Part shown: positions 34,119 through 57,181 of the stretch, one piece after another | Numbering within the stretch: the first letter of the stretch is position 1 | How the letters are laid out: every line of letters begins with the position of its first letter | Source of the DNA: Dehalococcoidia bacterium | GTDB taxonomy: Bacteria > Chloroflexota > Dehalococcoidia > Bin125 | Direction: 5' to 3' | DNA length: 64,000 nucleotides | Assembly (NCBI GenBank): GCA_963663235.2 | Contig: CAXXNO010000004.1 | Span: 224,001 to 288,000, forward strand | Position numbers and translations under genes: made by a program | Notes under the pieces: generated by a model | Databases searched by the model: none | What the model saw: the letters and a program-made list of their open reading frames with translations, nothing else | What the model was told of the DNA's origin: nothing

Positions 34119-34956
34119 CTACTCTGAAGCCGTCTCTGGAGCGGGCGCGGCGGGCTGGGTGGGCGCGGCGGGTTGGGTGGCCGCGGCGGGCTGGGTGGGC
34201 GCGGCGGGCTGGGTGGCCGCGGCGGGCTGGGTGGGCGCGGCGGGCTGGGTGGGCGCGGCGGGCTGGGTGGCCGCGGCGGGCTGGGTGGGCGCGGCGGGTT
34301 GGGTGGCCGCGGCGGCGGCGCGGGGTGGGGCGCGGCGGGCTGGGTGGGCGCGGCGGCTGGGTGGGCGCGGCGGGCTGGGTTGGGTGGGCCGGCGGGTTGG
34401 GTGGGCGGGGTTGGGTGGGCGCGGCGGGTTGGCCGGCGGAGGCCGGGGCTTCGGGCGGCAGGCCGGCCAGCGCCAAGCGCTGCCGCCGGACGGCTCTCGG
34501 GTCGCGCAGGCTGGCCAGCGCTTTCATGGTCGCCTGGACAACGTTGATGACGTTCTGCGATCCGAGCGACTTGGTCAGCACATCGCGAACGCCAGCCGCC
34601 TCCATGACGGCGCGCACGCCGCCGCCCGCGATCACGCCGGTCCCGGGAGAGGCCGGCTTGAGCATCACGCGGGCCGCGCCGTATTTCGTCGTCGTCGGAT
34701 GCGGGAGCGTGCCGTTGCGCAGGGGAACGGTGACCATGTTCTTGCGGGCGGTGGTTGCGCCCTTGCGGATGGCCTCGGGCACTTCGTTGGCGCGCCCGAT
34801 GGCCGCGCCGACCGAGCCCTGCCCGTCGCCCACGACCACTACGGCGGTGAAGGAGAAGCGCCGGCCGCCCTTGACCACCTTGGCCACGCGGTTGATGGCC
34901 ACCACTTTCTCGATGAGGTCGCCGGGGGCGCGCTGGGACATCTGCGGGTGCGCCAT
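34119..34956 (-). CDS. rpsE: 30S ribosomal protein S5 with (TQPAAP)n tail; net 1-nt frame break inside the repeat
   Basis: [16 protein letters not shown] and PGTGVIAGG. The repeat frame ends ...PETASE-TAG at 34119, just before rpmD. Confidence 0.93.
34143..34430. repeat. 18-nt tandem repeat (GGGCGCGGCGGGCTGGGT-like), about 15 copies
   Basis: Read directly; copies at ~34310-34420 carry indels. Confidence 0.9.
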
Positions 34957-34972
34957 TCTCCGTCCTTCCACG

Positions 34973-35347
34973 CTAAAACTCTAGGCCGCCCTTGCGGGCC
35001 GCCTCGGCCAGGGCCTGCACGCGCCCGTGATAGCGGTAGCCGCCGCGATCGAAGACGACGGTCCGGATCCCGGTGGCGCGAGCGCGTTCCGCTAGGCGAG
35101 CGCCCACGGCCGTGGCGCGGTCCGTCTTGCCGGGCCCGTTGTGGCTGCGCAGGTCACTTTCGAGGTCGGAGGCGGCGGCGAGCGTCACCCCTTGTTCGTC
35201 GTCGATGATCTGGCTGTAGATGTATTGGTTGGAGCGGAAGACGGTCAGGCGCGGGCGGGCGGCGGTGCCGCGCACCCGCCGGCGCACGCGGGCGTGGCGC
35301 CGCAAGCGGGCGGCCCGAACGGTACGGCGGCGGCGGCGGGTCCCCAT
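34973..35347 (-). CDS. rplR: 50S ribosomal protein L18
   Basis: [10 protein letters not shown] and [13 protein letters not shown]. Confidence 0.97.
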
Positions 35348-35349
35348 CC

Positions 35350-35898
35350 TCACGCTCCCAACGCGGTTCGTGCGCCCTTGCCGGCCTTGCGCCGGACCCA
35401 CTCGCCCTGGTAGCGGATGCCCTTGCCCTTGTACGGCTCCGGCGGGCGGACCCGGCGAATCGTCGCGGCCTGCTGGCCGACGACTTGTTTGTCGATGCCG
35501 CGCACGTGGACCAGCGGGCCTTCCAATTCGAAGGTGATCCCTTCCAGGGGCTCGACGTGCACGTCGTGTGAAAACCCGACGCGCAAGACCAGGGTGGCCT
35601 CTTCCATCTGAGCGCGATAGCCGGTGCCCTGAATCTCCAGCGTCTTCGTGAACCCCTGCACCACACCGATCACCATGTTGTTGATCAGCGTGCGTGTCAG
35701 CCCATGCAAGGCGCGGTGCTTCCGCTGCTCCGAGGGCCGCGTGACCTGGACCCGGCCGTCGCCGATGGTCACCTGCATGTCGGGGTGCAGCAAGCGCGTG
35801 AGGACGCCGTTGGGTCCGCTGACCTCGATGCGGCTGCCGTCCAGGGTGGCGGTGACCCCGGCGGGCAGGGAGATGGGTTCTCGGCCGACGCGGCTCAT
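35350..35898 (-). CDS. rplF: 50S ribosomal protein L6
   Basis: MSRVGREPI and [13 protein letters not shown]. Confidence 0.97.
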
Positions 35899-35902
35899 TG
35901 CA

Positions 35903-36307
35903 TCACCAGACGTAGCACAGGACTTCACCGCCCACCTGTTCGCGGCGGGCGCGCTGGCCGGTCATCACGCCGCGAGGCGTGGAAAGGATGGCGACGCCGA
36001 GACCACCGTAGACCCGGGGCACCTCGCGCCGCTGGACGTAGACGCGCAAGCCGGGCCGGCTGACACGCTGGACGCCGGTGAGCACGGGCTCGCCGTCCTC
36101 GCTGTAGAGCAACTCGATATCGATGTCCCGGCGCACGGGCGTGCGGCCTTCGCCGACGGTGTAGCTCTTGATGAAGCCCTCCTGGGCCAGGACATCCGCC
36201 AGGGCCACCTTGAGCTTGGAGGCGGGGATGCGCACCCGCTCATGGCGGGCGGCGATGGCGTTGCGGATCCGTGTGAGCATGTCGGCGATGGGATCAGTGA
36301 CGGGCAT
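35903..36307 (-). CDS. rpsH: 30S ribosomal protein S8
   Basis: [20 protein letters not shown] and GGEVLCYVW. Confidence 0.98.
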
Positions 36308-36311
36308 ACGG

Positions 36312-36872
36312 CTATCCTCCGCTACCGGCGCGCGCGAGCGGCATGCCGAGCAGTTCCAGCAAGCGCCGGCCTTCTTCGTCCGTCTTGGCGGTGGTGCGGA
36401 TGTTGACCTGGAGACCGCGGATGCGGTCGACCTGGGCGTAGTCGATCTCGGGGAAGATGATCTGCTCGCGCAGGCCGAGGCTGAAGTTGCCCCGCCCATC
36501 GAAGGCGGTGCGGGAGACGCCGCGAAAGTCGCGGATGCGAGGGAGGGCGGCGTTGATGGTGCGGTCCAAGAACTCCCACATCCGGTCCCCGTGGAGTGTG
36601 CAGGTGACGCCCACGGGGTTGCCGGCGCGCAGCTTGAAGTTGGCGACGGATTTCTTGGCGCGCATGATGACCGGCTTCTGTCCGGTGATGGCAGCGATGT
36701 CATCCGCGGTGGTATCCAGGGCGCGGGCGTTTTCCAGCGCCTCTCCCAGCCCAACGTTGACCACGACCATGGTGACGCGGGGGACCTCCATGACGTTGCG
36801 GTAGTGAAACTCCCGCATCAGCGCGGGCTGCACTTCGTCTTGATAGCGTTGGCGGAGACGTGGCGCGGGCAT
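36312..36872 (-). CDS. rplE: 50S ribosomal protein L5
   Basis: [21 protein letters not shown] and EQIIFPEI. Confidence 0.98.
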
Positions 36873-37186
36873 CAGTCGAGTTCCTCGTCGCAGCGTTTGC
36901 AAACTCGCACCTTGACGGTGTCCGCGCGGATGCGGAAGCCGATGCGCGTGGCACGATTGCAGCTGGCGCAGACGGGGGCCACGTTGCTCCAGTGCAGGGA
37001 GGCCTCCATCTCCACGATCCCGGCCTGGGTGCCGAGCTGGCGCGGCTTCAGGTGCCGCTTGACCATGTTCACGCCTTGGACGATGACGCGCTCGCGGCGC
37101 GGGATGACCTGGCGCACCTGTCCGCGCTTGCCGCGGTCCCTGCCGCTCAGCACCTCTACGAGGTCGTCCCGCTGGATGCGTCGCAT
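36872..37186 (-). CDS. rplX: 50S ribosomal protein L24
   Basis: [14 protein letters not shown] motif; CxxC pairs. Confidence 0.97.
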
Positions 37187-37189
37187 GCG

Positions 37190-37558
37190 CTAGACGACCT
37201 CCGGCGCTAAGGAGACGATCTTCATGTAGTTCTTCTCCCGCAGCTCCCGCGCGACCGGCCCGAAGATGCGCGTGCCGCGTGGATTCAGGCGGTCCGAGAG
37301 GATCACTGCCGCGTTCTCGTCGAACTTGATGTAGGAGCCGTCGGCGCGGCGGTAGCCTTGGGCGGTGCGCACCACCACGGCGCGGACCACGTCGCCTTTC
37401 TTGACCTCGCGGGCGGGGTCGGCCTGTTTGACGCTGGCGACGATGACGTCGCCGACGCGGGCATAGCGGCGCCGCGTGCCGCCCAGCACGCGGATGCACT
37501 TGATCACTCGCGCGCCGGAGTTATCCGCGACTCGCATGGCTGTTTCTTGCTGGATCAC
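37190..37558 (-). CDS. rplN: 50S ribosomal protein L14
   Basis: VADNSGA and [13 protein letters not shown]. Confidence 0.98.
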
Positions 37559-38016
37559 GGGGCCGGCTCCTGGTCCGTGTCGGGCGGATCGCCCTCCGTG
37601 TCCTGGCGGGGCGCCGGGGGATCGGGCGCGGCGGTCGCGGCGGGCGGCGCCGACGCCGGCGGCTCGGGCGTCGTCGCGTCCGGTTGGAGGGATGGAGCGG
37701 GCGGCTCAGCGGCGGGGGCGGCGGCGATGGCCTCCGGCTCCACGGCGATCTCGCGCGGCTGAACCTCGGCGACTTCGTGGCGCTCCAAGATCTCGACCAC
37801 GCGCCAGTGTTTCAGTTTGGAGAGCGGGCGGGACTCCTCGATCAGCACGCGGTCTCCCAGGCGGCAGTCGTTGCGCTCATCGTGCGCCTGGTAGCGCTTG
37901 CGGCGGCGGAGGCTCTTGCGGTAGAGGCGGTGGGTGATGATGCGCTCGATCTGTACGACGACGGTCTTGTCCATTTTTTCGCTGACGACGGTCCCGGTGC
38001 GTTGTTTGCGCGCCAT
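37555..38016 (-). CDS. rpsQ: 30S ribosomal protein S17 with Pro/Ala/acidic tail
   Basis: [14 protein letters not shown] and [11 protein letters not shown], then a ~65-aa low-complexity tail. Confidence 0.96.
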
Positions 38017-38019
38017 CGG

Positions 38020-38610
38020 CTAGCCCGCCTCCTTCTGCTCAGCGTCACCGGCCGCCTCGTCGTCGGCGGCGGGCTCCTCGGCGGGCGCCGCGGCCACGGC
38101 CGGCTCGGCGCTCTCGGCGGACTCGCTCTCGGCGGACTCGGTCTCGGCGGCGGGCTCTTCGGCGGGCGCCGCGGCCACGCCGGCTCGGCGCTCTCGGCGG
38201 ACTCGCTCTCGGCGGCTCGGTCTCGGTGGACTCGGTCTCGGCGGCGCTCTCGCCGCGGCCACGGCCGGCTCGCTCTCGGCGGACTCGGTCTCGGTGGACT
38301 CGGTCTCGGCGGCGGCGGCCTCCGCCTCGACCCGCTCGCGTTCTTCCTGGGCGCGCCGCTTCTGGGGCGAGATCTGGCGCTCGGCGGGGGTGGCGAGGGG
38401 CGCGACGAGGACACCGCGCGCCCGCTCCTGGCGGATGGTGCGCAGCCGTGCCACCTGGTGTCGCGCTTGGGGGATGGCCATGGTGTTGGTCAGTTGATGG
38501 GTGCCCTTCTGGAACTGCAGGGTGAAGAGTTCGCGGTAGGCCTCGTTGATGGCGGTGGCCAGGTCATCGTCGGAGAGGGCGCGAGCCTCGTTGGCGGCGG
38601 GGTTGGGCAT
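38020..38610 (-). CDS. rpmC: 50S ribosomal protein L29 with long acidic repeat tail
   Basis: RELFTLQFQ..QLTN..ARHQVARLRT, position between rplP and rpsQ; tail has ETESAES repeats. Confidence 0.92.
   Translation of the reverse strand: MPNPAANEARALSDDDLATAINEAYRELFTLQFQKGTHQLTNTMAIPQARHQVARLRTIRQERARGVLVAPLATPAERQISPQKRRAQEERERVEAEAAAAETESTETESAESEPAVAAARAPPRPSPPRPSRRERVRRERRAGVAAAPAEEPAAETESAESESAESAEPAVAAAPAEEPAADDEAAGDAEQKEAG
38065..38310. repeat. Three imperfect ~81-nt repeats with nested 15-nt units in the rpmC tail
   Basis: Units encode AETESAESESAESAEPAVAAAPAEEPA; the middle copy has 1-nt deletions. Confidence 0.8.
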
Positions 38611-38612
38611 GG

Positions 38613-39032
38613 CTAGATGACCTCGGCGTCGCGCACGATGACGCGCGTGTGGATGGGCAGCTTGTGGGAGGCCAGCCGGAGGGCCTGCCGGGCGTCATGC
38701 TCGCTGACGCCGGAGATTTCGAAGATCACGCGGCCGGGCTTGACGACCGCGACCCAGTGATCCGGGGCGCCTTTGCCTTTGCCCATGCGGGTCTCGGCGG
38801 GCTTCTGTGTGACGGACTTGTCGGGAAAGATGCGAATCCAGATCTTGCCGCCGCGCTGGACGTAGTGGGTGATGGCGCGGCGGGCGGCCTCGATCTGGCG
38901 GCTGTCGATCCAGGCGGGGTCGAGGGCCTGGAGGCCGAATTCGCCGAAGGCCACGGTGTTGCCGGTGGCGGCGACGCCGCGGCGGCGGCCCCGGTGGTGC
39001 TTGCGCCAGCGGACGCGCTTGGGCTGGAGCAT
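38613..39032 (-). CDS. rplP: 50S ribosomal protein L16
   Basis: RQIEAARRA and ETRMGKGKG. Confidence 0.98.
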
Positions 39033-39805
39033 CAGGCCGTCCCTGGGGGCGGGGGCGGCGTCTGGCCGTCCGCGGTGGCGGGAGGCTGCGGCTGTTGCGC
39101 GACCGGGGAGGTGGGGGGCGGCGGGACGGCGCGGGCGGGCCCGGTGACCTCTTCCTCGGCGAGACCGGGGGCGCTGCCCTCCGGCGTGATCAGGCCTTTG
39201 TAGATCCAGACCTTCACGCCGATCCGGCCGAAGACGGTGCGCGCCTCGACGCGCCCGTAGTCGATATCAGCGCGCAAGGTGTGAAGCGGTACTTGGCCGT
39301 TGCGCTCGGTGATGCGTCGGGACATCTCGGCGCCGCCGAGGCGGCCGCTGATGATGATCTTGACGCCCTTGGCGCCCCGTTGCATGGTGCGCTGCGCGGC
39401 CTGTTTGATGGCGCGGCGGAAGGCGACACGGCGCTCAAGTTGCTCGGCGACGTTGCGCGCCACCAAGCGGGCATCGAGCTCCGGTACGTGGATCTCTTGG
39501 ACGTTGACCCGGATCCGCCGGCCGGTGGCGCGCTCCAGGCGGTTGCGCAACTCATCGACCTTCTGGCCGCCGCGCCCGATCACGATGCCGGGCTTGGCCG
39601 TGTGGATGGTGACGGCGGCCTGGTTGGCGTTGTTCTCGATCACGATGCGGGAGACGCCGGAGTCGCCGAGGGTGTCATTGATCGTGCCGCGGATCATGCG
39701 GTCTTCGGCCAAGAAGTCCGCGTATTTCTCTTCCGCGTACCACTGGCTCTGCCACCCGTAGATGATGCCGAGGCGGAAACTGGTGGGGTTGACCTTTTGA
39801 CCCAT
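39032..39805 (-). CDS. rpsC: 30S ribosomal protein S3
   Basis: MGQKVNP and [11 protein letters not shown]; Pro-rich tail. Confidence 0.98.
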
Positions 39806-39808
39806 CGT

Positions 39809-40147
39809 TTACTTCCGATCATCCGAGACGATGACAGTGATATGGCTGGTGCGCCGGCGGATCATGCCTGCGCGCCCGCGGGCCCTGGGCTTGAAACGGC
39901 GCAGGGTGCGCGCATCGCCGGCGTAGGCGGCGGCAACGCGCAGATCGTCGCGCGCGAGGTTGTAGTTATTCTCCGCGTTGGCTATTGCGGACTCCAGCAC
40001 CTTGGCCACCGTGCGGGCGGCGGGTTTGGGGGTGAAGCGCAGCGCCAGCAGCGCGTCCTCCACGGACATCCCACGGAGTCCTTGCAGGATCAGGCGCGCC
40101 TTGCGCGGCGTAATCGGGGCGAACTTGGCGGTGGCGCGGACGTTCAT
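39809..40147 (-). CDS. rplV: 50S ribosomal protein L22
   Basis: PRKARL, SAIANAENN and RARGRA..RTSHIT. Confidence 0.97.
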   Translation of the reverse strand: MNVRATAKFAPITPRKARLILQGLRGMSVEDALLALRFTPKPAARTVAKVLESAIANAENNYNLARDDLRVAAAYAGDARTLRRFKPRARGRAGMIRRRTSHITVIVSDDRK

Positions 40148-40149
40148 CG

Positions 40150-40434
40150 CTAGCGTACCTGTGTGCTCCTCTCGGAGCGGCCCGCGTGGCCGCGGAAGGT
40201 CCGGGTGGCGGCGAATTCGCCCAGCTTGTGTCCCACCATGTTCTCGGTGACGAAGACGGGCACGTGCCGGCGGCCGTCATGGACGCCGATTGTCAGCCCG
40301 ACCATCTCGGGCATGACGGTGGAAGCGCGCGACCAGGTCTGGATCACGGTGCGCTGTCCGCTCTTGCGCACGGCGAGGACCTTCTTGAGCAGTTTGGTAT
40401 CGATGTAGGGACCCTTTTTCGTAGAGCGCGACAT
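40150..40434 (-). CDS. rpsS: 30S ribosomal protein S19
   Basis: [10 protein letters not shown] and MVGHKLGEF. Confidence 0.98.
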
Positions 40435-40448
40435 TCGCTGCGTCCCCC

Positions 40449-41288
40449 TTAGCCGCGGCCGCTGCCGCGGCGGCGCACGATGTACTTGTCGGACGGCTTG
40501 CGCCCGCGGGTGCGATAGCCCAGGGTGGGCTTCCCCCAGGGGGTCTTGGGACCGGGCAGCCCGATGGGCGCCTTGCCCTCACCGCCGCCGTGGGGATGGT
40601 CGACGGGGTTCATCGCCGCGCCGCGCACTTGCGGGCGCCGGCCGCGATGGCGGGTCCTGCCGGCCTTGCCGAGCTTGATGATGCCGTGCTCGGCGTTGCC
40701 GACCTGGCCCACGGTGGCGTAGCAGGCGCTGCGGACGCGTCGCATCTCGCTGGAGGGAAGGCGCAGGAGACAGTAGTCGCCTTCCTTGGCCATGATCTGC
40801 GCGGCGACCCCGGCGCTGCGTACCATCTGCGCGCCCTTGCCCTCCACCAGCTCCACGCAGTGCACCTGCGTCCCGGACGGCAGCCCGGACAGCGGCATGG
40901 CGTTCCCGGGCCGGATGGGCGCGTCCGGACCGGTCTCGATCTGGTCGTTCACCGCGATCCCCAGAGGGGCGAGGATGTAGCGCTTCTCGCCGTCCGCGTA
41001 CACCACTAAGGCGATGCGCGCGGAGCGGTTGGGATCATACTCGATGGCGCGGACGCGGCCGGGGATGCCGACGCGGTCGCGGCGCTTCCAATCGATGATG
41101 CGGTAGCGGCGCTTTGCGCCGCCGCCGCGGTGCCGGACCGTAATGACGCCGCGATTGTTGCGGCCGGCCTTGCGCTTGAGCGGCGCAAGCAGGCTCTTCT
41201 CGGGGCGTTTCTTCGTGATCTCCGTGAAGCTATAGCCGGAGGCGCCGCGACGGCCGGGCGAGGTGGGCTTGAACTGCTTCAACGGCAT
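40449..41288 (-). CDS. rplB: 50S ribosomal protein L2
   Basis: [12 protein letters not shown] and [14 protein letters not shown]. Confidence 0.98.
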
Positions 41289-41290
41289 GG

Positions 41291-41587
41291 CTACACCCCC
41301 TCGAAGAGCTTGATCTGATAGCCCGGGGCGAGGGTGACGACCGCCTTCTTGCGGCTCGGTTCCTGGCCGGTGCGCCGGCCGAAGCGCCGGCTCTTGCCCC
41401 GCACGGTCATCACGTTGACCTTGCGCACGGCCACGCTGAACGCGATCTCGACGGCCTCCTTAATCTGCATCTTGTTGGCGCGGGGATCGACTTCAAAGAC
41501 GTACTTGCCCGTTTCGGCCAGCTCCGTGCTCTTTTCCGTCAGGATGGGACGACGCAACACGACGTAGGGATGGATCTCCTTGGGCAT
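41291..41587 (-). CDS. rplW: 50S ribosomal protein L23
   Basis: [18 protein letters not shown] and KKAVVTL. Confidence 0.97.
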
Positions 41588-42258
41588 CAGGCATCCTTCC
41601 CGCCGGCGATGGCGGCACGGCGCAGGCGGGCGCGATCGCCGCCCCAGAGCGCCTCCGCCCGTCGCACGGCGGCTTCGGTCATGATGATGTGATCATGCCC
41701 AATGAGCGCGGCGACGTTCAGCGTATCAGCCGGGCAAGTGTGCAGATTGGCGAGATTGCGAATGCCCAGCTTCAGGCCGGGATCCGTGGCGCGCGTCACC
41801 AACAGCGCGGTGCGCGTGACGCCCAGCCCGTCCAGCATTGCCTTCATGGTCCGCGTGCGGGGCTCGAACTGCACGTCGTCTTCGAGCACGAGGATCCCGC
41901 CCTCGGCGGCCCGCTGGGAGAGGAGCGATCGGATGGCCAGCCGGCGCATGCGCTTGGGCAGCGCCTGCCGATAGGAGCGCGGATGGGGCCCATGCGCCAC
42001 GGCGCCCCCGCGTCGCACGGGTGAGGAGACAGCGCCCTGCCGCGCGCGGCCGGTGCCCTTCTGGCGGAGCGTCTTGGCCGTGCTGCCGCGCAGCTGGGAG
42101 CGGCTGAGGGTGGCGTGCGTGCCCTGGCGTTGGTTGGCGCGGTGGGCCAGCAGCGCCTGGTGCACGACGGTCAGGTGGGGTTCGATCCCGAAGACGGCGT
42201 CGTCGGTGTCGATCTCTCGGACTTTCTGGCCGGCGGCGTCGACGACTAGCAGCTTCAT
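41587..42258 (-). CDS. rplD: 50S ribosomal protein L4
   Basis: RQGTH, RQKGTGRARQG and GPHPRSY. Confidence 0.97.
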   Translation of the reverse strand: MKLLVVDAAGQKVREIDTDDAVFGIEPHLTVVHQALLAHRANQRQGTHATLSRSQLRGSTAKTLRQKGTGRARQGAVSSPVRRGGAVAHGPHPRSYRQALPKRMRRLAIRSLLSQRAAEGGILVLEDDVQFEPRTRTMKAMLDGLGVTRTALLVTRATDPGLKLGIRNLANLHTCPADTLNVAALIGHDHIIMTEAAVRRAEALWGGDRARLRRAAIAGGKDA

Positions 42259-42938
42259 GACGCTGACTGCGCCGATTGTTTGTAGGTGCGCCGCACCATG
42301 ATGACTTGATTCGGAGGCCCGGGGACAGATCCGTTAACGAACAGCAAGCCCCGCTCGGGCTGGATGTCGACGATCTCGAGGTTGATGCTCGTACGCCGGA
42401 CGCCGCCCTGGCGCCCGGCCATCTTGGTCCCTTTGAAGACGCGCCCCGGCGTGGTGCCGGCCCCGATGGACCCGGGGGCGCGGTGGCGGTCGCTCTGCCC
42501 GTGCGTCTTGGGGCCGCCGTGAAAGCCGTGGCGCTTGACCACCCCGGCGAAGCCCTTGCCCTTGGAGGTGCCGGAGACGTCCACGCGGTCGCCGACGGCA
42601 AAGAGGTCGGCGGCGGTGAAGGATTGCCCGACCTTGAGCGACTCGTAGTCCGCCTCATCGGCGCGGAACTCGGCGAGGTATCGCAAGGGGCCATTGGAGC
42701 CGGTGTGACCGCGCTGGGCCTTGGAGAGCCGCCATTCGCGCCCCAAGCCGAAGCCCAACTGCACGGCGCGATAGCCGTCGCGCTCGGGCGTCTTGATCTG
42801 GGTGACGGCGCAGGGGCCCACTTGCAGCACGGTGCAGCCGCTGACGCGGCCGTCCGAGGCGATGGTTTGGACCATGCCCAGCTTCCTGCCCAGGAGTCCC
42901 TGTACGGCCACGGTGGTCTGACGCTCGCCTTCCGTCAC
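42255..42938 (-). CDS. rplC: 50S ribosomal protein L3
   Basis: [19 protein letters not shown] and RAPGSIG. Confidence 0.97.
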
Positions 42939-43247
42939 TTACAGTTTGATCTCGATATCCACGCCGCTGGGCAGTTGGAGCCGCATCAGCGTATCAACCG
43001 TCTTGCCTGTGGGCTCAAGGATGTCGATCAGGCGTTTATGGGTGCGCATTTCGAACTGCTCACGGGAGTCTTTATCGATGAAGGGTGAGCGGATCACGGT
43101 GTAGCGCTGGATTTTCGTCGGGAGGGGGACGGGGCCGGCAACTTCCGCCCCGGCCTTCTCCGCCGCCTCCACTATCTGGCGCGCGCTCTCATCCAGAATG
43201 CGATGGTCATAGGCCTTGAGTTGGATTCGGATCTTCTGGCGCGCCAC
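42939..43247 (-). CDS. rpsJ: 30S ribosomal protein S10
   Basis: [16 protein letters not shown] and SREQFE. Confidence 0.98.
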
Positions 43248-43251
43248 GGCT

Positions 43252-44451: not shown

Positions 44452-44492
44452 GATTCTCCATCTCTCCGCGGCGGGCCGGGCCCGCCATCGCG

Positions 44493-46556: not shown

Positions 46557-46622
46557 GGCTAGGCCCGGCCGAGCGGCCGACGTGAGACCGCCCGACGCAT
46601 GTCGGGCGGTTGGGGGGTCGGG

Positions 46623-47093: not shown

Positions 47094-47189
47094 GATACTC
47101 CATCCTGGGACGGCCAGCGGCCGTCTTTCTCAAAGGCGCACGGGACTCGACTGCGGAGCGGGGGCCGAGCGCCTGCCCCCACCCAACCG

Positions 47190-47618: not shown

Positions 47619-47770
47619 TATGCTCTTCCGCCAGACTCCAAACACGACGAACGGCCGAGAGCCGTTCGCTGAACCACTCCGGCCCCGGGGAACGGGTGCT
47701 GCCGGCGGTCTTCGGACGGTGACGGCTTCGACCGTAGCTCGCCCACCGCAGGGCAAGCATACAGGCTACA

Positions 47771-47800
47771 AATGTAGGAAGGGGTGGAAACGCGTGTCAA
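47771..47800 (-). promoter_or_regulatory. Promoter of the ribosomal supercluster
   Basis: TTGACA (47800-47795), 18-nt spacer, TACATT (47776-47771). Confidence 0.7.
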
Positions 47801-47833
47801 GCAATTCGGGCGCGAGTTTACGCCCGGGGCGCC

Positions 47834-48748
47834 TCAGACGCCGGCGTAGGAGTGGAGTCCGCTGATCCAGAGGTTGACGCCCAGGTAGGTGAAGAGGACG
47901 GCCATAAAACCCCCCACCACGATCCAGGAGCCGCGCGCGCCCTTGAGCTGGCGGATGCCGCGGGTGTGCATGTAGCCGGCGAAGATCAGCCAGGTGACCA
48001 GGGCCGCGGTCTCCTTGGGGTCCCAGCCCCAGTAGCGGCCCCAGGCGTCGTGGGCCCAGAGGGCGCCCAGCGCGACGCCCACGGCCAGCAAGGGGAAGCC
48101 CACCAGCACGGAGCGGTAGGTGAGCTCGTCGCAGCGATCGGCGGTGGGGAGCCAGGCGTGCCGCCGGCCCTTGCTGCCCTGGAGGATGTGCATCACGGCC
48201 GCGCCGAAGGCCACCGCGAGCGCGGCGTAGGCCAGGATCATCATCGCCACGTGAATGCTGAGCAGGGTGGGGCTCTGCAGGGCCGGCACGAGCACCTGCT
48301 CCCCCTGCGACGGGAAGGCGAGGGCGCTGGCGTAGAGCCCGAACGACACCGGCATGACGAACGCTCCCAGGAGACGGCTGTGGAAGCGCCATTCCGCGAT
48401 CACGTACATCAGCGCGATGGCGAAGCCGAAGGCCATGGAGAACTCGAAGAGGTTGCTGTAGGGGGCGTGATCCAGCGCGATGGTGCGGAAGACCAGCCCC
48501 AGCCCCCCGAAGACGACCGACGTCCAGGCGGTCAAGCTGGCGACGCCGCCCAGCGTGCGGGAGCGCTGAGGGCGCTGGGACGTCGGGACCGAGGTCGTGA
48601 GGGTGAGGGCTCCGGCGTCGGTGGCGGCGACCGCGCGCGCCGCGCCGAAGGCGAGGCGCGGCTGGAGGGCGTAGGCCACGTAGGCGGCCGCGGCGCAGCC
48701 GGCGGCCACCAAGCCGGACCAGAGAAGGTAGAGCGCGAGGTCCTCCAC
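47834..48748 (-). CDS. ccsA: Cytochrome c biogenesis protein CcsA/ResC (system II)
   Basis: HAPYSNLFE, PALQS..LSIHV, WWD motif WAHDAWGRYWGWDPKE and GLHSYA. Confidence 0.94.
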   Translation of the reverse strand: MEDLALYLLWSGLVAAGCAAAAYVAYALQPRLAFGAARAVAATDAGALTLTTSVPTSQRPQRSRTLGGVASLTAWTSVVFGGLGLVFRTIALDHAPYSNLFEFSMAFGFAIALMYVIAEWRFHSRLLGAFVMPVSFGLYASALAFPSQGEQVLVPALQSPTLLSIHVAMMILAYAALAVAFGAAVMHILQGSKGRRHAWLPTADRCDELTYRSVLVGFPLLAVGVALGALWAHDAWGRYWGWDPKETAALVTWLIFAGYMHTRGIRQLKGARGSWIVVGGFMAVLFTYLGVNLWISGLHSYAGV

Positions 48749-48750
48749 CG

Positions 48751-49527
48751 CTAGGTCTCCGTTTCCTGCGCCGCCAGCAGCTTGGCCCGGTTCGGGGCCG
48801 CGCGCTCGCCGAAGAGCAAGCGGCGGAACCCCTCCGCCCAGGGCACCTCGCCGACGGCGGCGGCCTTGTCTTCCTCCCGGCGCCAGCGCTCCATGCGCTC
48901 CTCCCAGGTGCCGCCACCTCCCTGGCTGGCGTGGCAACGTAAGGCCTGGAGCCGCCGCTCGAATTGGGCGTCGACATCGACAAAATAATCGGGCTCGCGG
49001 GTGCCCGCCAGCAGGACCTCGTTGACGCGGTGGGGCTGGAGGCCGTCGTCACGGTGCTGGGGGAAGTAGTGGGGCGTTCGGGCTAGGGGGAAGGCCGCGT
49101 CCAGCGTGACCGTGCCCACCGTGCGGTGGTCGCGGTGGTTGAAGCCCCGCCAGCCGTCCCAGGTGATCAGCAGGTCCGGGCGCACCTCGCGGATGACGCG
49201 GACGATGGCGCCGCGGAGCTCGGGTGAGTCCTCCACGAAGCCGTCCGGCCAGCGCAGAAAGCGGCAGGTATGCACGCCGAGGACGCGCGCCGCCGCCTCT
49301 TGCTCGGTCTCGCGCACGGCGGCGAGGTCCCAGGACTGGAAGGCGCTGTCCCGGCTGCCTTTATCGCCGCTGGTGACGAGGCAGAAGGTGACGTCCGTAC
49401 CGGCGTCCGCCAGCTTCGCGACGGTGCCGCCACAGGTGAACTCGATATCGTCGGGGTGCGCCATGATCACCAGCGCCCGTTGCGGGGCGCCCGATCCGTT
49501 GGTCGCGGGCGGTGCGGCAGCGCTCAT
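48751..49527 (-). CDS. PIG-L/LmbE family deacetylase (MshB/BshB superfamily)
   Basis: AHPDD, TSGDKG, HRDH and HASQ. Confidence 0.88.
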   Translation of the reverse strand: MSAAAPPATNGSGAPQRALVIMAHPDDIEFTCGGTVAKLADAGTDVTFCLVTSGDKGSRDSAFQSWDLAAVRETEQEAAARVLGVHTCRFLRWPDGFVEDSPELRGAIVRVIREVRPDLLITWDGWRGFNHRDHRTVGTVTLDAAFPLARTPHYFPQHRDDGLQPHRVNEVLLAGTREPDYFVDVDAQFERRLQALRCHASQGGGGTWEERMERWRREEDKAAAVGEVPWAEGFRRLLFGERAAPNRAKLLAAQETET

Positions 49528-49561
49528 GGCGCCCTCAGTTTAGCGGGCCGGTCCCGGAGGG

Positions 49562-50854
49562 CTAGTGAGCGTGACAGCAGGCGGCCGCGCGGGCGGCCGG
49601 GCGGTGCACATGGTGGCCGCCGCAGCAGGGCTGCGCATCGTGCCCTGCGAGGAGGCGCTCATAGACGGCGCCGATGCGATCAGCGACGGCGCGCCATTCA
49701 AACGCCGCGACGGAGGCGGGGGCGGCATCGCCGAAGCGCCGGCGCAGGTCCGGGTTGGCGAGGAGCGCCTCGATCCGTTCCGCGAAGGGCTCCGGGCAGC
49801 GCCAGGGCACTAGATAGCCGGTCTGGCCGTCGCGCACCGTGTACTGGAGTCCGCCGACGCGTGTGGCGACCACGGGCGTCCCGCAGGCCAGCGCCTCCAC
49901 CGCCACCAGGCCGAAGCTCTCGTAGTAGGAGGGCACCACACAGATATCGGCCGCGCGATAGTAGAGCGGCAACGTCTTGTGAGCCACCGCGCCGGGGAAG
50001 CGCACCCGATCGGCGATGCCCAGCGAGCGGCCCAGCGCCTCCAGTTGCGCGCGCTGCCCGTCGGCCTGCTCATCGCCGCCGACGATGAGGACGGTTAGCG
50101 GGGTATCGACGTCGGCCAGGGCGGCGGCCCGCAGCGCGATGTCGACTCCCTTCAACGGCTCCAGGCGCCCGACGACGAGGAGGATGGGGCCATCGCCCAG
50201 GCCCAGTTGTGCGCGCGCCTGGGCGCGGGGGCCGGGTTGGAAGAGGATCCGGTCCACCCCACCGGGCACCACCGTGACGCAGTCGGGCTGGGCGCCGTAG
50301 AGATCCGCCAAGAAGTCGCGCTCATGAGGAGTGGCGCAGATCAGGTGGTGCGCCCGCTGCACGATGCGTCGCTCCGCCTCGATGCGCGCCTGCGATTCCT
50401 GCTCGCCGCGGCGGGCGCGATTCTTGACCGCCCCCAGCGTGTGGAACATGGCGACATGCGGGCAGCCCCACTCGGCGGCCAGATCCGCCCCGCTCAACCC
50501 CGAGAGCCAGTAGTGCGAGTGGATGAGGTCGTAGGTGTGCCCGTGCCGCCGGGCGAAGCGGCGGACGGCATCGGTGAAGGCGGGCAGCAGCGGCTGGATC
50601 TCGGGGGGGGAGAGCGGCGCGGCCGGGCCCGCGGGCAGCGTGATCAGGCGGACGTTTTCGGCGCAGGTGATGGTCTCAGCGGTCTGGGGATTGTCACGGC
50701 GCGTGTAGATATCGACCTGGTAGCCGAGGCGGCCCAACTCGCGCGTCAGTTCCCGGATGTAGACGTTCATGCCGCCGGCTTTGGTGGTGCCGGGCTGCGC
50801 GAGCGGCGAGGTGTGGGTGCTGAGGAACGCGAGTCGATGTAACTGGTGCGGCAT
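49562..50854 (-). CDS. GT4 glycosyltransferase, MshA-like
   Basis: HTSPLAQPG..AGGMNVY, IHSHYWLSG and ESFGLVAVEA; Cys/His-rich tail. Confidence 0.88.
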   Translation of the reverse strand: MPHQLHRLAFLSTHTSPLAQPGTTKAGGMNVYIRELTRELGRLGYQVDIYTRRDNPQTAETITCAENVRLITLPAGPAAPLSPPEIQPLLPAFTDAVRRFARRHGHTYDLIHSHYWLSGLSGADLAAEWGCPHVAMFHTLGAVKNRARRGEQESQARIEAERRIVQRAHHLICATPHERDFLADLYGAQPDCVTVVPGGVDRILFQPGPRAQARAQLGLGDGPILLVVGRLEPLKGVDIALRAAALADVDTPLTVLIVGGDEQADGQRAQLEALGRSLGIADRVRFPGAVAHKTLPLYYRAADICVVPSYYESFGLVAVEALACGTPVVATRVGGLQYTVRDGQTGYLVPWRCPEPFAERIEALLANPDLRRRFGDAAPASVAAFEWRAVADRIGAVYERLLAGHDAQPCCGGHHVHRPAARAAACCHAH

Positions 50855-50863
50855 AGCGCGCTC

Positions 50864-51850
50864 CTAGCGGGTCAACAGCAGGCGAGTCACCGGCGAGGGC
50901 ACGCCACCCAACTGATATTTGTACGCTTCCTCGCCGCGGAGGAAGTTGACCGCGCGTTTTCGCTCCTCGATGCAGGAGCGCAGGCAATACACCTTGGAGG
51001 CCAGGCCCACCGCCAGATCCCGATAGTCGGGGTCGTAGCCGCTGTTGTACAGGAACAGGGTGTCGCCGGTGTCGAAGCCGAGGATCGCGGCGACCGTCTT
51101 GCCGTCGAGTTGTAGGAGGTAGAGGCGCGCCCAGCCACGGGAGGCGAGGTTCCGGCCGAGCGCGAGGAAGAACGCCTGCCGGGGCTCGGTCAGGAAGCCC
51201 GCCTTATCGCGGCGGGAGTCGCGCATCATGGCGAGGAGGTGGGAGACGCCGGCCACCACGGGATCGGGGTCGCGCTCCACGGTGAGCGAGACGCGCGCGC
51301 CGCCTTCGGCCAAGTTTCGCAGCTTGCGGCGCACCTCATGCCGTTGCTTGCCGCCGAGGCCGTCCAGATAGGCCTCCCACGTTGCCGGCAACGCGACCGT
51401 GGGACAGACGGCCTCCTGCTCCGCGCGCACGGCCCAGCCGCGCGCGCGCGCCGCCGCCGGCAGGGACGCCAGCGTCGGCGAGCCCTCCGCGAGCCCGCGC
51501 AGGTCGACGGCGCGGCAATCGTCGCGTTCCAGGTGTTCCAGCAGCGCCTGCGCCACCTCGTCCTCCCGCCCCGGCGCGGCGATCAAGTCCATGTAGTCGC
51601 AGACCTCCGGATCGCCGATGAAAGAGACGGCATTGTCCCGGCGCATAAGGGGCAGCACGCCGATCAGCGTGCCATCGGCCGCGCGGACGGAGCAAAGGTC
51701 CAGCGTGGCGTCCTGGGCGAAGAGATCCCACCAGACGGACTGAAACTGCGGATAAAGGAAGACGCCGGCCGGCGGCGCGGCGCGTGACGCGAGCGCCGTC
51801 CAGTCATCGGTGAGCGACGCCCACGTCTGGGGGTGAACACACACGGTCAC
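50864..51850 (-). CDS. GNAT acetyltransferase, CelD/BcsL-like
   Basis: [26 protein letters not shown] and FLRGEEAYK. Confidence 0.85.
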
Positions 51851-52449
51851 TCAGAGCCCCGACGGAGGAGCGAGAGGAACTCCGCGCGGGTCACGGCCTG
51901 CGACGAGAAGGTGCCACGCAAAACGGAGGTCACCATGCGGCTGCCGGGCTTCTTGATGCCACGCATGGTCATGCAGAGGTGCTCGGCGTCCATTGCCACG
52001 GCGACCCCCTCCGGCTCGATCACGGCCATCAGCGTATCGGCGATCTCACAGGTCAGCCGCTCCTGGACTTGAGGGCGACGGGCGACGGCGTCCACCAAGC
52101 GAGCGATCTTGCTGATGCCGACTACGCGGCCTCGGGGCACGTAGGAGACGTGCGCGACGCCGTGAAAGGGGAGGAAGTGATGCTCGCACATGGAGTAGAA
52201 GGGAATATCGCGGAGGACCACCATCTCGTCGTGGCTCTCCTCGAAGCCCACCTTCAGGAGCTGCCTGGGGTCTGTCGTGAGACCGGCGAAGATCTCCTCG
52301 TAGGAGTCGGCGATCCGGCGGGGCGTGTCGAGCAGGCCCTCCCGCTCGGGGTCTTCACCGATCGCGTACAGGATCTCGCGGACCGCAGCGGCGATCCGCT
52401 CTTTGTCGATTGCCGGTGGGCCGATGGACGCATCGCTTTGTGTCGTCAT
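51847..52449 (-). CDS. folE: GTP cyclohydrolase I
   Basis: [25 protein letters not shown] and HLCMTMRG. Confidence 0.97.
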
Positions 52450-52654
52450 CCTGCTTGGACCTCCTTGCCCAGCACGAACAGGCCTGCCAGGAGCCACGAG
52501 CGCCGTCCCGCCAGGTCTCGAAGAAGATACGCCAGCCCGCCGGCGCGCGATGGCCGTGGAGCCGCCGTACGAGCCACCCGCGCGCCGGCGGCGCCCGCGC
52601 GCCAAGATCGCGGCGCATGGTAGGGAATCGCCACCACGCGAAGGCGCAGCACGG

Positions 52655-53731
52655 CTAGTCGAGCGCGCCCTCGACGCCGGCGAGCGTGGCGGGCACCTCG
52701 CGGCGGTCGGGCTCGATGGCCAGGGCGCGCTCGGGGTCTTTGAGCCCCGATCCGGTAATCACGCAGACGACGCGTTTGCCCCGCACGTCGATGCCGCGCT
52801 GCTTCAGAGCCAGCAATCCGGCGACGGAGGCGGCGGAGGCCGGCTCGGCGAAGACGCCTTCCCTGCGAGCCAGGTGCTCGTAGGCGGCGAGGATCTCGGC
52901 GTCGGACACGGCCAAGATCGCGCCGCCGGACTCGTCGCGCGCCGCGATGGCGCCGGCCCAGGAGGCCGGATTGCCGATGCGGATGGCCGTGGCCAGCGTC
53001 TCCGGCTGGGCCACGGGCCGGCCGGTGACCAGCGGCGCCGCGCCCTCCGCCTGAAAGCCGTACATGGCGGGGAGGTGGCTCATCCGGCCCAGTTGCCGGT
53101 ATTCGCGGTAGCCGCGCCAGTAGGCGGTGATGTTGCCGGCGTTGCCGACCGGCATGCAATGGATGTCGGGCGCGTCGCCGAGATCATCGACGATTTCGAA
53201 GGCGGCGGTCTTCTGCCCCTCAATGCGGTGGGGGTTGACGGAGTTGACGAGGGCGATCGGCCGCCGCTCGGTCACCTCGCGGGCGAGGCGGAGGGCGTCG
53301 TCGAAGGAACCGTCGATGGCGAGGATGCGCGCGCCGTGCGCTACGGCCTGGGCGAGCTTGCCGCGCGCCACGGCGCCCCGGGGGACCAGGACGAAGACGC
53401 GCAGGCCGCATCGCGCGGCGTAGGCGGCGGCGGAGGCGCTGGTGTTGCCGGTGGAGGCGCAGAGCACGGCGGGGAAGCCGACCTCGAGCGCCTTGGCCAC
53501 GGCCACGACCATGCCGCGATCCTTGAACGAGCCGGTGGGGTTGCAGGACTCCAGCTTGAGCATCACAGAGGCCGCGCCGGTCAGCTGTTCCAGGGCAGGC
53601 GCCGGCACCAGCGGCGTGCTGCCCTCGCCCAGCGTGATCCGCGGGGTCTGATCCGTGAGCGGCAGATGGTCGGCGAAGCTGGCCAGCACGCCCTGGGGCG
53701 CCGAACCTTGGAGGGTGGGAGGGTCAGGCAT
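52655..53731 (-). CDS. thrC: Threonine synthase
   Basis: [20 protein letters not shown] and PVGNAGNI. Confidence 0.96.
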
Positions 53732-54749
53732 TCGAGTTGGGCGTTCGCTCGGGGCGGTTGTAGCCCTTGATCTCGCGGACCTCCTGCTCAAGGTCGGCGA
53801 TCTGGCGACGGCGCAGCTTTTCCTGGAAGGCGCTGAAGCGCTGCGCCTCGGCGATGGCGAGGTCGCGCACCTCCTGAACCAAGTTCCGCAGATCCGAGAG
53901 CGCACGATCCTGCTGGTCGGTCTTGCCGCGACTGCGCTCGATCATCCGCTCGAGGTCCTCGAGGCGGCTGGTGAGCGCGGTGTGGTCGCGGGCGACGCCG
54001 CTGGACCGCTCGGCGGTCGCTTCCGTGGTGATGCGAATCGCCTCGAGCCGCTCGCGAGCGACTTCGAATTCGCTGCGCAGATCCTCGACCCCCAAGGGGC
54101 CTTCCAGGACGCGCCCGAGTTGTTCCTCCGCGATCCCCAGCCGTTCGCCGAAGTCGCCGGCGGCGCGCTGGACAATGTCCATGTCCTCGGCCCAGGACTC
54201 GGCTGTCGCTTGGCCGCGCCGCTGGGCTTCTCCCGTGGCGGCCAGGCGCGAGTCCAAAGCCGCAAGCGTGATGTCGATCTGATCGAGGCGCTGGGACTGG
54301 AGGCTGAGGTCGTTGCGAAGGTGGCGTCCGGAATCATCGAGGCTGCCGAGTTTGTCGTGGACGCCGCTGGCCACGCGCTCGGCGGACTCCGTCTGGCGGA
54401 GGACGCGTCCGCGATCATCGCGGTCTCCCTGCATCTCCGCCCGCAGCTGGCGGGCGAGGTGCTCCGTCTGCTCCTGGTCCTGCGCCACCAAGGACTGCAC
54501 GCGGTCCACGCGCTCGCGCAGCCCCCGGACTTCGCCGGAGATGCCGACGAGCGCGTCCATCTGGGAAGCGAGGTTGTTCGCCCCGCTCTCCGAGCGCTGG
54601 AAGCGCTCGACGAGGTCCCACAGCTGGTCGTGGTCGTGTCGCAGTTGTTCGGACTGCTTGGCAATGTCCAGCTTGAGCTGGTGCATCTCGCCTTCCATCC
54701 ACTCCAGCATGGCCTGGGCGGTTTCCGGCGGGTCAGATGACGCGGTCAC
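53724..54749 (-). CDS. Long coiled-coil protein of unknown function
   Basis: 341-aa E/R/Q/L-rich heptad pattern with few Pro; overlaps both hom and thrC. Confidence 0.75.
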
Positions 54750-56062
54750 GGCCGGGGGCTCTCCATGCGAATGCGGATGCCGATCTCCAGCAGTGCGTCG
54801 AGAGCCGTGGCCTGCTGGAGGAAGCGATCCATATCCGCTTCCTGGGCGGCGTGCGTGGTGATCACGATCTCGGCCGTACCGGCGACAGGGTCGGCCTCCA
54901 TCTGGAGGAGGGAGGCGATGCTGATGTGGTTCTCCGCAAAGGCTCGCCCGATCTCCGCCAGCACGCCAGGCCGGTCCCGGACCAGGGTACGGAGATAATA
55001 CCCCATCCGCAGGGCGCCCATCGGTTGGATGCAGGGCGTGGGATCGGAGGGACGCTGCGGGCGGGGCCGCTGCCCGGCGGCGATGCCGTAGACGACATCG
55101 AGGAGGTCGGCGACGACGGCGCTGGTCGTCGGCCCGGCGCCGGCGCCGGGCCCTTCAAAGAGGGCGCGTCCCAGCAGATCGCCCTCGACCGCGACGGCGT
55201 TGAGCACGCCATCAACCTTGGCCAGCGGATCCTCCAGCGGGATGAGTGTGGGATGCACCCGCACTTCCAGGGCGCCGTCCGTGCGCCGCGCCGTGGCGAT
55301 GAGGCGAATCGCATAGCCCAGGCGGCGCGCGTATTCGAAATCCTTGGGCGTCAAGCGGGTGATGCCCTCGCGGTAGACATGGTCCGGATGGACGGTGGTG
55401 TGAAAGGCCAGGCTGGCGAGGATGGCCAGTTTGTAGGCGGCGTCGATCCCTTCGACATCGTTGGTGGGGTCGGCTTCGGCGTAGCCGCGGCGCTGGGCTT
55501 CGGCGAGGGCGGCCTCGTAGGAGAGGCCGTCACGGGCGATGGCGGTGAGGATGAAGTTGGTGGTGCCGTTGATGATGGCATGGATGGCGCGGATCTCGTT
55601 CGCCTGGAGGTCCCGCTTGAGCGGCGCGATGATGGGGATGCCGCCGCCCACGCTGGCCTCGTAGAGCAATTCGACATGGTGCTGGTGGGCGAGCGCGAGG
55701 AGCGCGGGGCCGTCTGTCGCCATCACCTCTTTGTTCGCGGTCACCACGTGCTTGCCGGCATTCAGAGCGGCGCGGATGCAGCCGCGCGCGGGCTCCAGCC
55801 CCCCCATCACCTCCACCACCACATCAACGCGCGGATCGGTGGCCACGGCCAGAGGGTCGGTTGTGAGCAGGGCGGGGTCGAGCGCGAGCGGGCGGGGGCG
55901 GGCGGGATTGCGCACGGCGACGCGGCGGACCTCAATAGGCCGGCCACTGCGCTGCGCGTAGTAGTGGGCCTGCGCCTGCAACGCGCCGAAGACGCTAGCG
56001 CCCACGACGCCGAGTCCCAACAGGCCGACGCCAACCGGGGCTGCCGCGGGGGACTCCGCCAT
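54746..56062 (-). CDS. hom: Homoserine dehydrogenase (with ACT domain)
   Basis: GLGVVG, VVTANK, YEASVGGGIP, NGTTNFIL and DRPGVLA. Confidence 0.97.
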   Translation of the reverse strand: MAESPAAAPVGVGLLGLGVVGASVFGALQAQAHYYAQRSGRPIEVRRVAVRNPARPRPLALDPALLTTDPLAVATDPRVDVVVEVMGGLEPARGCIRAALNAGKHVVTANKEVMATDGPALLALAHQHHVELLYEASVGGGIPIIAPLKRDLQANEIRAIHAIINGTTNFILTAIARDGLSYEAALAEAQRRGYAEADPTNDVEGIDAAYKLAILASLAFHTTVHPDHVYREGITRLTPKDFEYARRLGYAIRLIATARRTDGALEVRVHPTLIPLEDPLAKVDGVLNAVAVEGDLLGRALFEGPGAGAGPTTSAVVADLLDVVYGIAAGQRPRPQRPSDPTPCIQPMGALRMGYYLRTLVRDRPGVLAEIGRAFAENHISIASLLQMEADPVAGTAEIVITTHAAQEADMDRFLQQATALDALLEIGIRIRMESPRP

Positions 56063-56065
56063 GGG

Positions 56066-57181
56066 CTACACCGCGGCGTCCGGCGGCCGGGTATCCGGCG
56101 CGGGAGCGTCCGCCTCATCACTGTCCGCCTCGTCACTGTCCGCCTCGTCACTGTCCGGAGGGGGCGCGTCCGGCTCGGGGCCGGCGGCGGGGGCCTCGGC
56201 CGGCGCGGCGCTCTCCTCTGCGACGGGCTCCTCTGTCCCGGCGGCCTCGGACGGCAGCGGTTCCGGCGGAGCGGGCGGCGGGGTCGGGGTCTCCGGCTCA
56301 GCTGCCTCCGGCGGGGCAGCCTCCGCGGACGGGACTTCCGCTGCCGGAGCTTCGGGTGTCGGGGCTTCGGGCACGGCCGCCTCGGCAGCGGCGGGAGATT
56401 CGGGGGTCGGAGCTTCGGGCACGGCCGCCTCGGCAGCGGCGGGAGATTCGGGGGTCGGAGCTTCGGGCACGGCCGCCTCGGCACCGGCGGGAGCTTCAGG
56501 TGTCGGGGCTTCGGGCGGCGTGGCTGCCAGCCCCGCTTCGCGGGCCGCCGTCTCTTCGGCGGTAGCCGGGGGCGGCACGCGGGCGGGCCGCGTCTGCGCT
56601 CGGTAGTGAGACGCGAGGCGCATGTGCTCCGCGGTGTATGGCAGGAGCGCCACATGCCGCGCGCGCTTGATGGCTATCGTGAGGCGGCGCTGATCCTTGG
56701 CCGTCAGACCGGTCTTGCGCCGCGGCTCGATCTTGCCGCGCTCCGAGATGAGCCGCCGCAGCTTCTCGATGTCTTTGTACGTGATGTGCTGGACTTCGTC
56801 CGGGGTATATACCGGCGCGCGGCGGCCGTAGCGGCGTCGGGGGCCGCCGCCACGCGGTCGCGGGCCTGAGGACCGGTCGTCCGCGTCTGAGCGCCGGTCG
56901 TCCGAGCGCCGGTCGTCCGAGCGTCGGTCGTCCGAGCGCCGATCGTCCGAGCGCCGATCGTCCGAGCGCCGGTCGTCCGAGGGCGGGGAGCGGGGCGGGG
57001 CCGAAGGCACCGGAACCGGCGCCGCGGGTGCGGAAACCGCCGGGGCGGGTTCCGCCGGCGCCGCGGGTGCAGGTTCCGCCGGCGCCGCGGGTGCGGAAAC
57101 CGCCGGGGCGGGTTCCGCCGGCGCCGCGGCGGCGGGCGCGGCCGATGGGGACGAGTCTTCGCCCTCGGTCTCGGTGGGCAT
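56066..57181 (-). CDS. rpsR: 30S ribosomal protein S18 (no Zn motif) with very long N- and C-terminal extensions
   Basis: Core [41 protein letters not shown] in rpsF-ssb-rpsR order; 371 aa. Confidence 0.93.
56350..56515. repeat. About three 48-nt repeats encoding [16 protein letters not shown]
   Basis: Read directly. Confidence 0.8.
56891..56980. repeat. Six 15-nt repeats encoding (SDDRR)6
   Basis: GCGCCGGTCGTCCGA unit with synonymous variants. Confidence 0.93.

Follow-up and report, generated by a model that had tools for sequence, protein, structure and literature searches.

We analysed a 64,000-nt stretch, hereafter the window, of a Dehalococcoidia genome (2.75 Mb, 68% GC, 14 contigs) that corresponds to positions 224001-288000 of contig 4. 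The S12-S10-spc-alpha and S6-SSB-S18 gene clusters both lie in the window on the minus strand, and several of the ribosomal proteins that they encode carry long extensions, here called tails, beyond cores that were placed by Pfam searches (as were the small ribosomal proteins). The tailed genes with which this analysis is chiefly concerned are listed here, all on the minus strand.

34119..34956, minus: rpsE, S5, core of ~165 aa and a tail of ~113 codons in 18-nt repeats, which the assembly puts out of frame
37555..38016, minus: rpsQ, S17, 153 aa, core at aa 8-75
37555-37776, minus: S17 tail, 73 aa, net charge -13, beginning with a motif conserved across the class
38020..38610, minus: rpmC, L29, 196 aa, core at aa 7-63
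38020..38412, minus: L29 C-terminal tail, 130 aa, with a Pro linker, a predicted helix (aa 82-109) and acidic 15/81-nt repeats
39032..39805, minus: rpsC, S3, 257 aa, with a 49-aa Pro-rich tail at 39032-39181
56066..57181, minus: rpsR, S18, 371 aa, Pfam core at aa 130-180
56837..57181, minus: S18 N-terminal tail, 115 aa, Pro/Ala, net charge -5, with 24-nt and 15-nt arrays
56066..56590, minus: S18 C-terminal acidic tail, 174 aa, net charge -36, with 48-nt and 15-nt arrays

Apart from the N-terminal tail of S18, all of the ribosomal protein tails are C-terminal. Pro, Ala, Glu and Asp make up 57-79% of the tails of S18, L29, S17, S3, S16, L9 and L25, and hydrophobic residues 2-8%. Summed over the host genome the extensions amount to 981 residues with a net charge of -105, plus ~113 residues on S5. 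A preliminary description of the window had reported a ~130-aa L29 tail with acidic repeats, a Pro/Ala/acidic tail of ~65 aa on S17, an S18 of 371 aa around a small core, and a distinct DNA repeat unit in each gene. These observations hold, with an S17 tail of 73 aa and a frameshifted patch in the L29 tail as amendments: the units are of 18 nt in S5, 15 nt in L29 and S18, 48 nt in S18 and 81 nt in L29, where the 15-nt array is accompanied in the unit listing by a higher-order 27-aa/81-nt unit. The longest DNA common to any two of 11 tails in the host genome is 16 nt, so the tails were not copied from each other, and the spread of one repeat between genes is ruled out on this ground.

The tails had also been described as disordered. 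This fits their distal parts, which have low confidence in isolated structure models (pLDDT ~45-60), but not the tail bases of L29 and S18, where helices are predicted. In the L29 model the core helices run to aa 64 and are followed by a linker, the helix at aa 82-109 (pLDDT 87-90 over aa 81-100) and low confidence from aa 151; a further predicted helix at aa 133-145 is disregarded because it is located in the frameshifted patch. The last core helix of the S18 model reaches aa 197, and secondary structure is absent at aa 1-126, a segment within which the N-terminal tail contains Ser-Asp-Asp-Arg-Arg repeats, and at aa 218-371. The S3 tail bears a family-conserved GPA-x-AVPPP motif. Among the solved bacterial chains listed, those of L29 have at most 77 aa and those of S18 at most 103 aa.

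The distribution of the tails was followed in 24 genomes of the host's family (25 with the host, from 10 genera) and in 16 other families of the class. The host and the 24 relatives form one clade with support 1.0 in a tree of 12 concatenated ribosomal protein cores. Comparison of protein lengths, which the preliminary description had proposed, recovers the tails of L29 (30-130 aa), S17 (26-220 aa) and S18 (N-terminal, 40-144 aa) in 25/25 family genomes. The S18 C-terminal tail, of 53-189 aa, is net negative in 24/24, one truncated gene being left out. The S3 tails measure 26-50 aa (24 scored) and those of S5 13-158 aa, reaching at least 25 aa in 17/24. Outside the window, an L9 tail of 32-48 aa and net charge -13 to -21 is present in 23/23 untruncated relatives. 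Tails of at least 25 aa occur in other families of the class on S3 (10/15), S17 (6/15), the N-terminus (5/16) and C-terminus (4/16) of S18, L13 (4/14) and S5 (2/16), which indicates that the habit of carrying tails is class-wide and the full set family-wide. The L29 tail was seen in 0 of 9 other families, L29 having gone undetected in seven of the 16, and is a family-specific gain among the families scored. A broad control of distant bacteria, drawn from an L16 scan, gave tails of this length in 34/78 for S3, 5/67 for S5, 8/78 for S17 and 3/23 for L29. Thus the tails are inherited across the family and are not the product of slippage in one genome.

Tandem arrays were found in all 11 tails of at least 100 aa, in 5 of 15 tails of 60-99 aa and in 6 of the 61 that measure 25-59 aa, and the best repeat periods are without exception multiples of three (22/22). 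Since the arrays are concentrated in the longest tails, the repeats lengthen tails that already exist. In the window there are only 2-3 copies in S17 and S3 and no arrays in L17, RpoA or IF-1, so that "repeat-derived" fails as a general label. Two proposals of the preliminary description are thereby set aside, namely that all the extensions originated from repeats and that the repeats expanded independently in this genome; the tails are ancestral to the family, and repeats merely lengthen them.

The frame and composition of the tails are maintained, their sequence hardly. Of 107 tails in the 24 relatives, 101 are net negative, with -18 charges per 100 aa, whereas the two shifted frames of the same DNA would give +29 and +28 per 100 aa (open in 74 and 38 of the 107). 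In 106 tails the frame in use is more acidic than either alternative forward frame. The six tails that are not net negative are five S3 tails and one frameshifted S17 tail, in the relative genome G009. Open frames in intergenic DNA have +11 charges per 100 aa, 4.9% of 5677 being negative, and the soluble proteome has a median of -2.7. The composition of the relatives' L29, S5 and S17 tails is 31% Ala, 16% Glu, 16% Pro, 9% Asp and 1% Lys. In 11/11 congeneric pairs, which are non-independent and in some cases near saturation, dN/dS is higher in the tails (0.18-0.56) than in the cores (0.04-0.18) and stays below 1 in every tail comparison; the S17 of G009 was dropped. Three independent pairs of close relatives differ by 22 indels, 20 of them triplets (p = 3e-8). 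Many gaps in DNA alignments of distant pairs are non-triplet (for example 28/47 triplet), which we read as alignment noise.

The tails are also concentrated on the ribosome. With a home-made gene caller 2675 genes were obtained (86% coding). S5, and possibly other frameshifted repeat genes, escaped it, and S5 entered the background tests as its distal tail frame. When 2522 proteins were ranked by a tail score trained on the relatives' tails, nine ribosomal proteins (S18, L29, S17, S16, L9, L21, S3, L25 and S1) were among the 20 best. With an untrained rule, acidic hydrophobe-poor C-terminal tails were assigned to 8/50 ribosomal proteins and 38/2366 other called genes (odds ratio 11.7, p = 2.7e-6), or 20/1915 soluble proteins (odds ratio 18); since it extends into the cores of S18, L29 and L21, the lengths that it gives were not used. 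A stricter, fixed 35-residue rule gave 6/54 against 18/2366 (odds ratio 16, p = 9e-6). Overall, the enrichment of ribosomal proteins over the proteome is ~12-20-fold. The preliminary description had named a match with the genome-wide tail frequency as the sign of neutral slippage; the frequencies differ, with odds ratios of 11.7 and 16. Soluble non-ribosomal proteins with such tails include IF-3 and proteins that we take to be trigger factor and DnaK. Among the neighbouring enzymes, no more than 13 residues are added to Adk, Map or TruA in any family genome scored, in keeping with the earlier remark that these neighbours are mostly untailed.

Repeats of this kind invite the objection that the tails are assembly artefacts or untranslated read-through, and parts of the assembly do call for caution. 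The 18-nt unit of S5 is present in 15.9 copies, and units of 14, 17, 5, 17 and 41 nt shift the frame between 34416 and 34304, such that the assembled open reading frame continues Arg-rich into L30. The TQPAAP frame stops where S5 ends in relatives, at the TAG at 34121-34119, 3 nt short of the L30 start, and its distal part is close to neutral (a net charge of -2 over 61 aa). The (TQPAAP)15 tail of the preliminary description is real, as is its 18-nt repeat, but the assembled reading frame does not read it. In L29 a locally compensated frameshift produces an Arg/Pro patch at ~38251-38178. The stretch is present in 20/24 public sequencing runs listed, and in contigs of four of these runs, aligned to the window, the flanks of the tail regions match almost exactly. 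From one side these contigs reach into the S5 repeat as far as 34172-34240 and from the other as far as 34408-34413; within the L29 repeat they end at 38107 and at 38267-38281. The repeats are present and the S5 stop region is confirmed in them, and the indel zones of S5 and L29 are unbridged in the contigs listed. A 1-nt gap called at 34247 in 3/4 runs could belong to more than one repeat unit and was disregarded. The S5 indels are likely assembly errors, and the L29 patch likely stems from assembly indels too. Programmed frameshifting in the two genes is disfavoured: within the repeat units single bases have been lost from GC runs at several points, and relatives are in frame, although the contigs listed do not span these zones. 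The frameshifted S17 tail of G009 (L026), whose three congeners have acidic tails of 203-220 aa, is likely a case of the same sort. Annotators should be aware that these repeats attract indels by which assemblies lose the frame of S5, L29 or S17.

The non-triplet units and the G009 shift show that the repeats are error-prone, and this is what can be said for the artefact reading. It is largely refuted, and very improbable in our judgement: the S17 tail is bridged by public contigs in 4/4 independent runs with 0-1 differences, the same tails are found in 24 other genomes, and 182 of 205 S18 candidates from a database search have 204-650 aa. No RNA runs containing the stretch were among the public runs listed, which has no bearing on expression.

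We suggest, with the scales about evenly poised, that the tails are selected as non-specific acidic "entropic bristles" that would keep the basic, abundant ribosomal proteins and the ribosome soluble and non-sticky. Acidic entropic bristles are known as solubility tags, mainly from engineered fusions, and are hydrophobe-poor disordered tails whose action is independent of sequence. Comparison across the family shows that S18, L29, S17, S3, L9 and NusG had acquired fixed short tails, with a conserved motif or helix in the proximal part, before the family radiated, and that individual lineages extend them by in-frame tandem duplication of gene-specific units. On the statistical evidence selection maintains the frame and the acidic, low-hydrophobic composition, the sequence weakly, and the length not at all except in L9. 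The tails would be translated and project into the solvent, where ~1,100 extra residues per ribosome would act mainly as a steric coat; the known positions of the cores suggest that the tails lie on the ribosome surface. Bristles are favoured because the costliest proteins never lose their tails and because the L9 tail is narrow in length and charge. Ribosome surfaces have been reported to bind and aggregate with positively charged proteins (PMC5726854). The acidic, disordered ribosome brush proposed in the preliminary description is upheld in part, namely in its concentration on ribosomal proteins, its conserved acidic frame and its largely predicted disorder, but not all of the tails are acidic.

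Several points weigh against selection for bristles. The L21 tail is basic (+17), that of S5 neutral and the N-terminal tails of S18 near neutral; long S16 tails are found in merely 2/25 family genomes. Tail lengths of S17, S5, S18, L17 and S16 vary several-fold and are inconsistently coordinated (Spearman -0.12 to 0.67). Protein-guided alignment biases tail dN/dS downward, and in the three close independent pairs the bias in substitutions is weak, with 72/57/88 at codon positions 1/2/3 (p = 0.036). The expression-matched control was poor, since the codon-bias proxy missed obviously abundant proteins and was unreliable (2/171). The rRNA of a ribosome carries ~4,500 phosphates, so that the added charge (~-105) comes to only ~2% of the rRNA charge; a steric effect is for this reason more plausible than an electrostatic one, or else the tails would act on free ribosomal proteins before assembly. 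Finally, a filter against basic or hydrophobic tails would by itself also yield acidic tails.

That last point is the basis of a reading in which the tails are tolerated drift: GC-rich slippage lengthens exposed termini, and selection, with no benefit from the tails, merely purges basic, hydrophobic and frameshifted forms, those that would stick to rRNA. The hypervariable length and sequence agree with this, as do dN/dS values of 0.35-0.56 in the closest pairs, the dominance of cheap residues (Ala, Pro and Glu) and the fact that different ribosomal proteins are tailed in different Dehalococcoidia families. Tail ends also overlap the ribosome-binding region of the next gene, which could explain their conserved last residues. 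Filtered drift accounts for the acidity and the length noise but less well for retention. The L29, S17, S18 and L9 tails have never been lost in 24-25 genomes of 10 genera, L9 is narrow in both length and charge, the tails are concentrated on the proteins costliest to extend instead of being spread over the proteome, and the link with GC is inconsistent (rho 0.74 for S17, -0.49 for S5). We regard drift as a possible but less probable explanation. A different proposal is that the proximal motifs and helices of L29, S18, S17, S3 and RpoA dock on rRNA or factors, or take part in remodelling, with the distal repeats as spacers or by-products. L29 lies near the tunnel exit and S18 at the platform. 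The predicted L29 helix (aa 82-109), whose motif SPQ-(K/R)-x-RA occurs in 13/25 family members, speaks for docking, as do the extension of the S18 helix to aa 197, the invariance of R188, R194 and R198 across 30 sequences, and the chloroplast uL29 C-terminal helix that shields the SRP pocket on uL23 (PMC5694952). Against it, the other 12/25 family members have an acidic L29 tail without the helix motif, the motifs cover ~10-25 residues of tails of up to 220, and no partner was identified here. Docking is doubtful as a general account but may hold for the proximal motifs, which are short, and for the distal parts of the tails it is compatible with bristles. More speculative still, and rather improbable, is a coordinated acidic coat over the ribosome, NusG and RNA polymerase alpha, in which the L29 helix would hold an acidic arm at the tunnel exit (an in-cis chaperone or a gate for trigger factor and SRP); mRNA entry and transcription-translation coupling would be tuned by the tails of S18, S3 and S5 together with the ~180-aa tail of NusG.

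Two further candidates were considered. Compensation for lost ribosomal proteins was rejected, S21, S14, S20, L28, L31, L32, L36, L25 and L30 all being present. A general, salt-type acidification was set aside, although not decisively: ribosomal protein cores have a median charge of +8.7 per 100 aa, only a little less basic than the +9.5 of other families, and Adk and Map are somewhat more acidic (-4.3 vs -1.3) with overlapping ranges.

Tails of this kind are known, but here they have other carriers and are larger. In PMC6821194 (Ntountoumi et al. 2019), 822 low-complexity regions of bacterial ribosomal proteins are described as Ala/Glu-rich, mostly C-terminal, surface-located and unexplained in function, with S2, S16, L25, S3, S6, L3, L10, L17, L19, L21 and L31 as frequent carriers (at least 20 orthologs). 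The tails studied here are likewise Ala/Glu-rich and mostly C-terminal, and S2, S16, L25, S3, L17 and L21 are tailed here too. In contrast to that set, the main carriers are L29, S17, S18, S5 and L9, while S6, L3, L19 and L31 have no long tail; the tails are Pro-rich, reach 220 aa, are fixed in the family and are still growing by in-frame repeats. Relative to the average in that source (39% Ala, 21% Glu, 9% Lys), Pro is higher and Lys lower. "Chloroflexi" does not occur in its main text, and L29, L9 and "Dehalo" gave no hits in part of its supplement, of which files 6-7 may list such cases. Our literature search, with most subscription papers outside the searchable text, returned no paper on ribosomal protein tails of this lineage.

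In the chloroplast 70S ribosome (uL29c, uS5c; PMC5694952) the mRNA entry, the platform and the tunnel exit likewise bear extensions peculiar to the lineage, including a uL29 C-terminal helix, but these are for the most part ordered and bind to rRNA or to proteins, whereas the tails here are mostly predicted to be disordered, acidic and hypervariable. The extensions of IF2 are disordered termini on the translation machinery, as here, and their deletion gives stress-dependent growth effects, but they concern a single factor and not many ribosomal proteins (bioRxiv 10.64898/2026.02.08.704698). The tails resemble entropic bristle tags in being acidic, hydrophobe-poor and disordered, the solubility effect of such tags being known mainly from engineered fusions. 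For the question of useful versus tolerated tails, the family offers a natural series in which the same genes carry ~30-220 residues on near-identical cores, and which includes an L9 tail of narrow length and charge and an L29 tail, at the tunnel exit, whose gain is specific to the family.

Further extensions in the window and elsewhere in the genome are as follows.

26994..27404, minus: rplQ, L17, with an 18-aa acidic tail (family range 14-90 aa)
27408..28529, minus: rpoA, with a 63-aa acidic C-terminal extension
30011..30280, minus: infA, IF-1, with an 18-aa basic N-terminal extension, outside the acidic set
L169:2343-3407 (C4:391492-392556): NusG, with a 182-aa acidic N-terminal tail, net charge -35, with a 45-nt repeat

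The preliminary description had grouped shorter tails on S3, L17, RpoA and IF-1; those of S3 (49 aa) and RpoA (63 extra aa) bear this out, but L17 has only 18 aa and the IF-1 extension is basic. The L17 gene apparently starts with CTG (27402-27404), 6 nt after AAGGAG, and with ATG in 20/20 family relatives scored; the CTG may be a rare start codon or an assembly error. Beyond its acidic linker RpoA ends in a conserved motif, Ser/Thr-Leu-Gly-x-Ala-Leu-Leu-x-Ala-Leu-Arg (window 27408-27470), present in every family genome shown and with a similar counterpart in G039 and G034. This motif is probably amphipathic and possibly an interaction helix.

NusG open frames have 293-497 aa in 25/25 family genomes, and N-terminal tails of 98-184 aa and net charge -23 to -48 were found in 13/15 family loci fetched, the other two having yielded no ATG. 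Some genera have an insertion within the NusG core, seen as split or longer matches. The 130-aa tail of L21 (L164:350-1054) is bipartite, acidic and then Lys/Arg/Ala-rich, with a net charge of +17 opposite to that of the other tails. The NADH dehydrogenase 30-kDa subunit (L173:60-1103) has a C-terminal extension of ~170 aa that is rich in Ala, Lys, Glu and Pro and contains internally repeated helix-like motifs. EF-Ts (L168:1438-1938) has just 166 aa.

Within the window, one of the loops that join the transmembrane segments of SecY (31719-33470; 583 aa) holds an acidic insertion of ~140 aa. S14 and L36 lie outside the spc/alpha cluster (expected at 36307-36312 and 30000-30011) and are located at C1:28030 and C9:91811; both apparently lack zinc-binding cysteines. 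Degenerate 24-nt and 54-nt tandem repeats cluster in and before an open reading frame of 565 aa at window positions 11451-12826.

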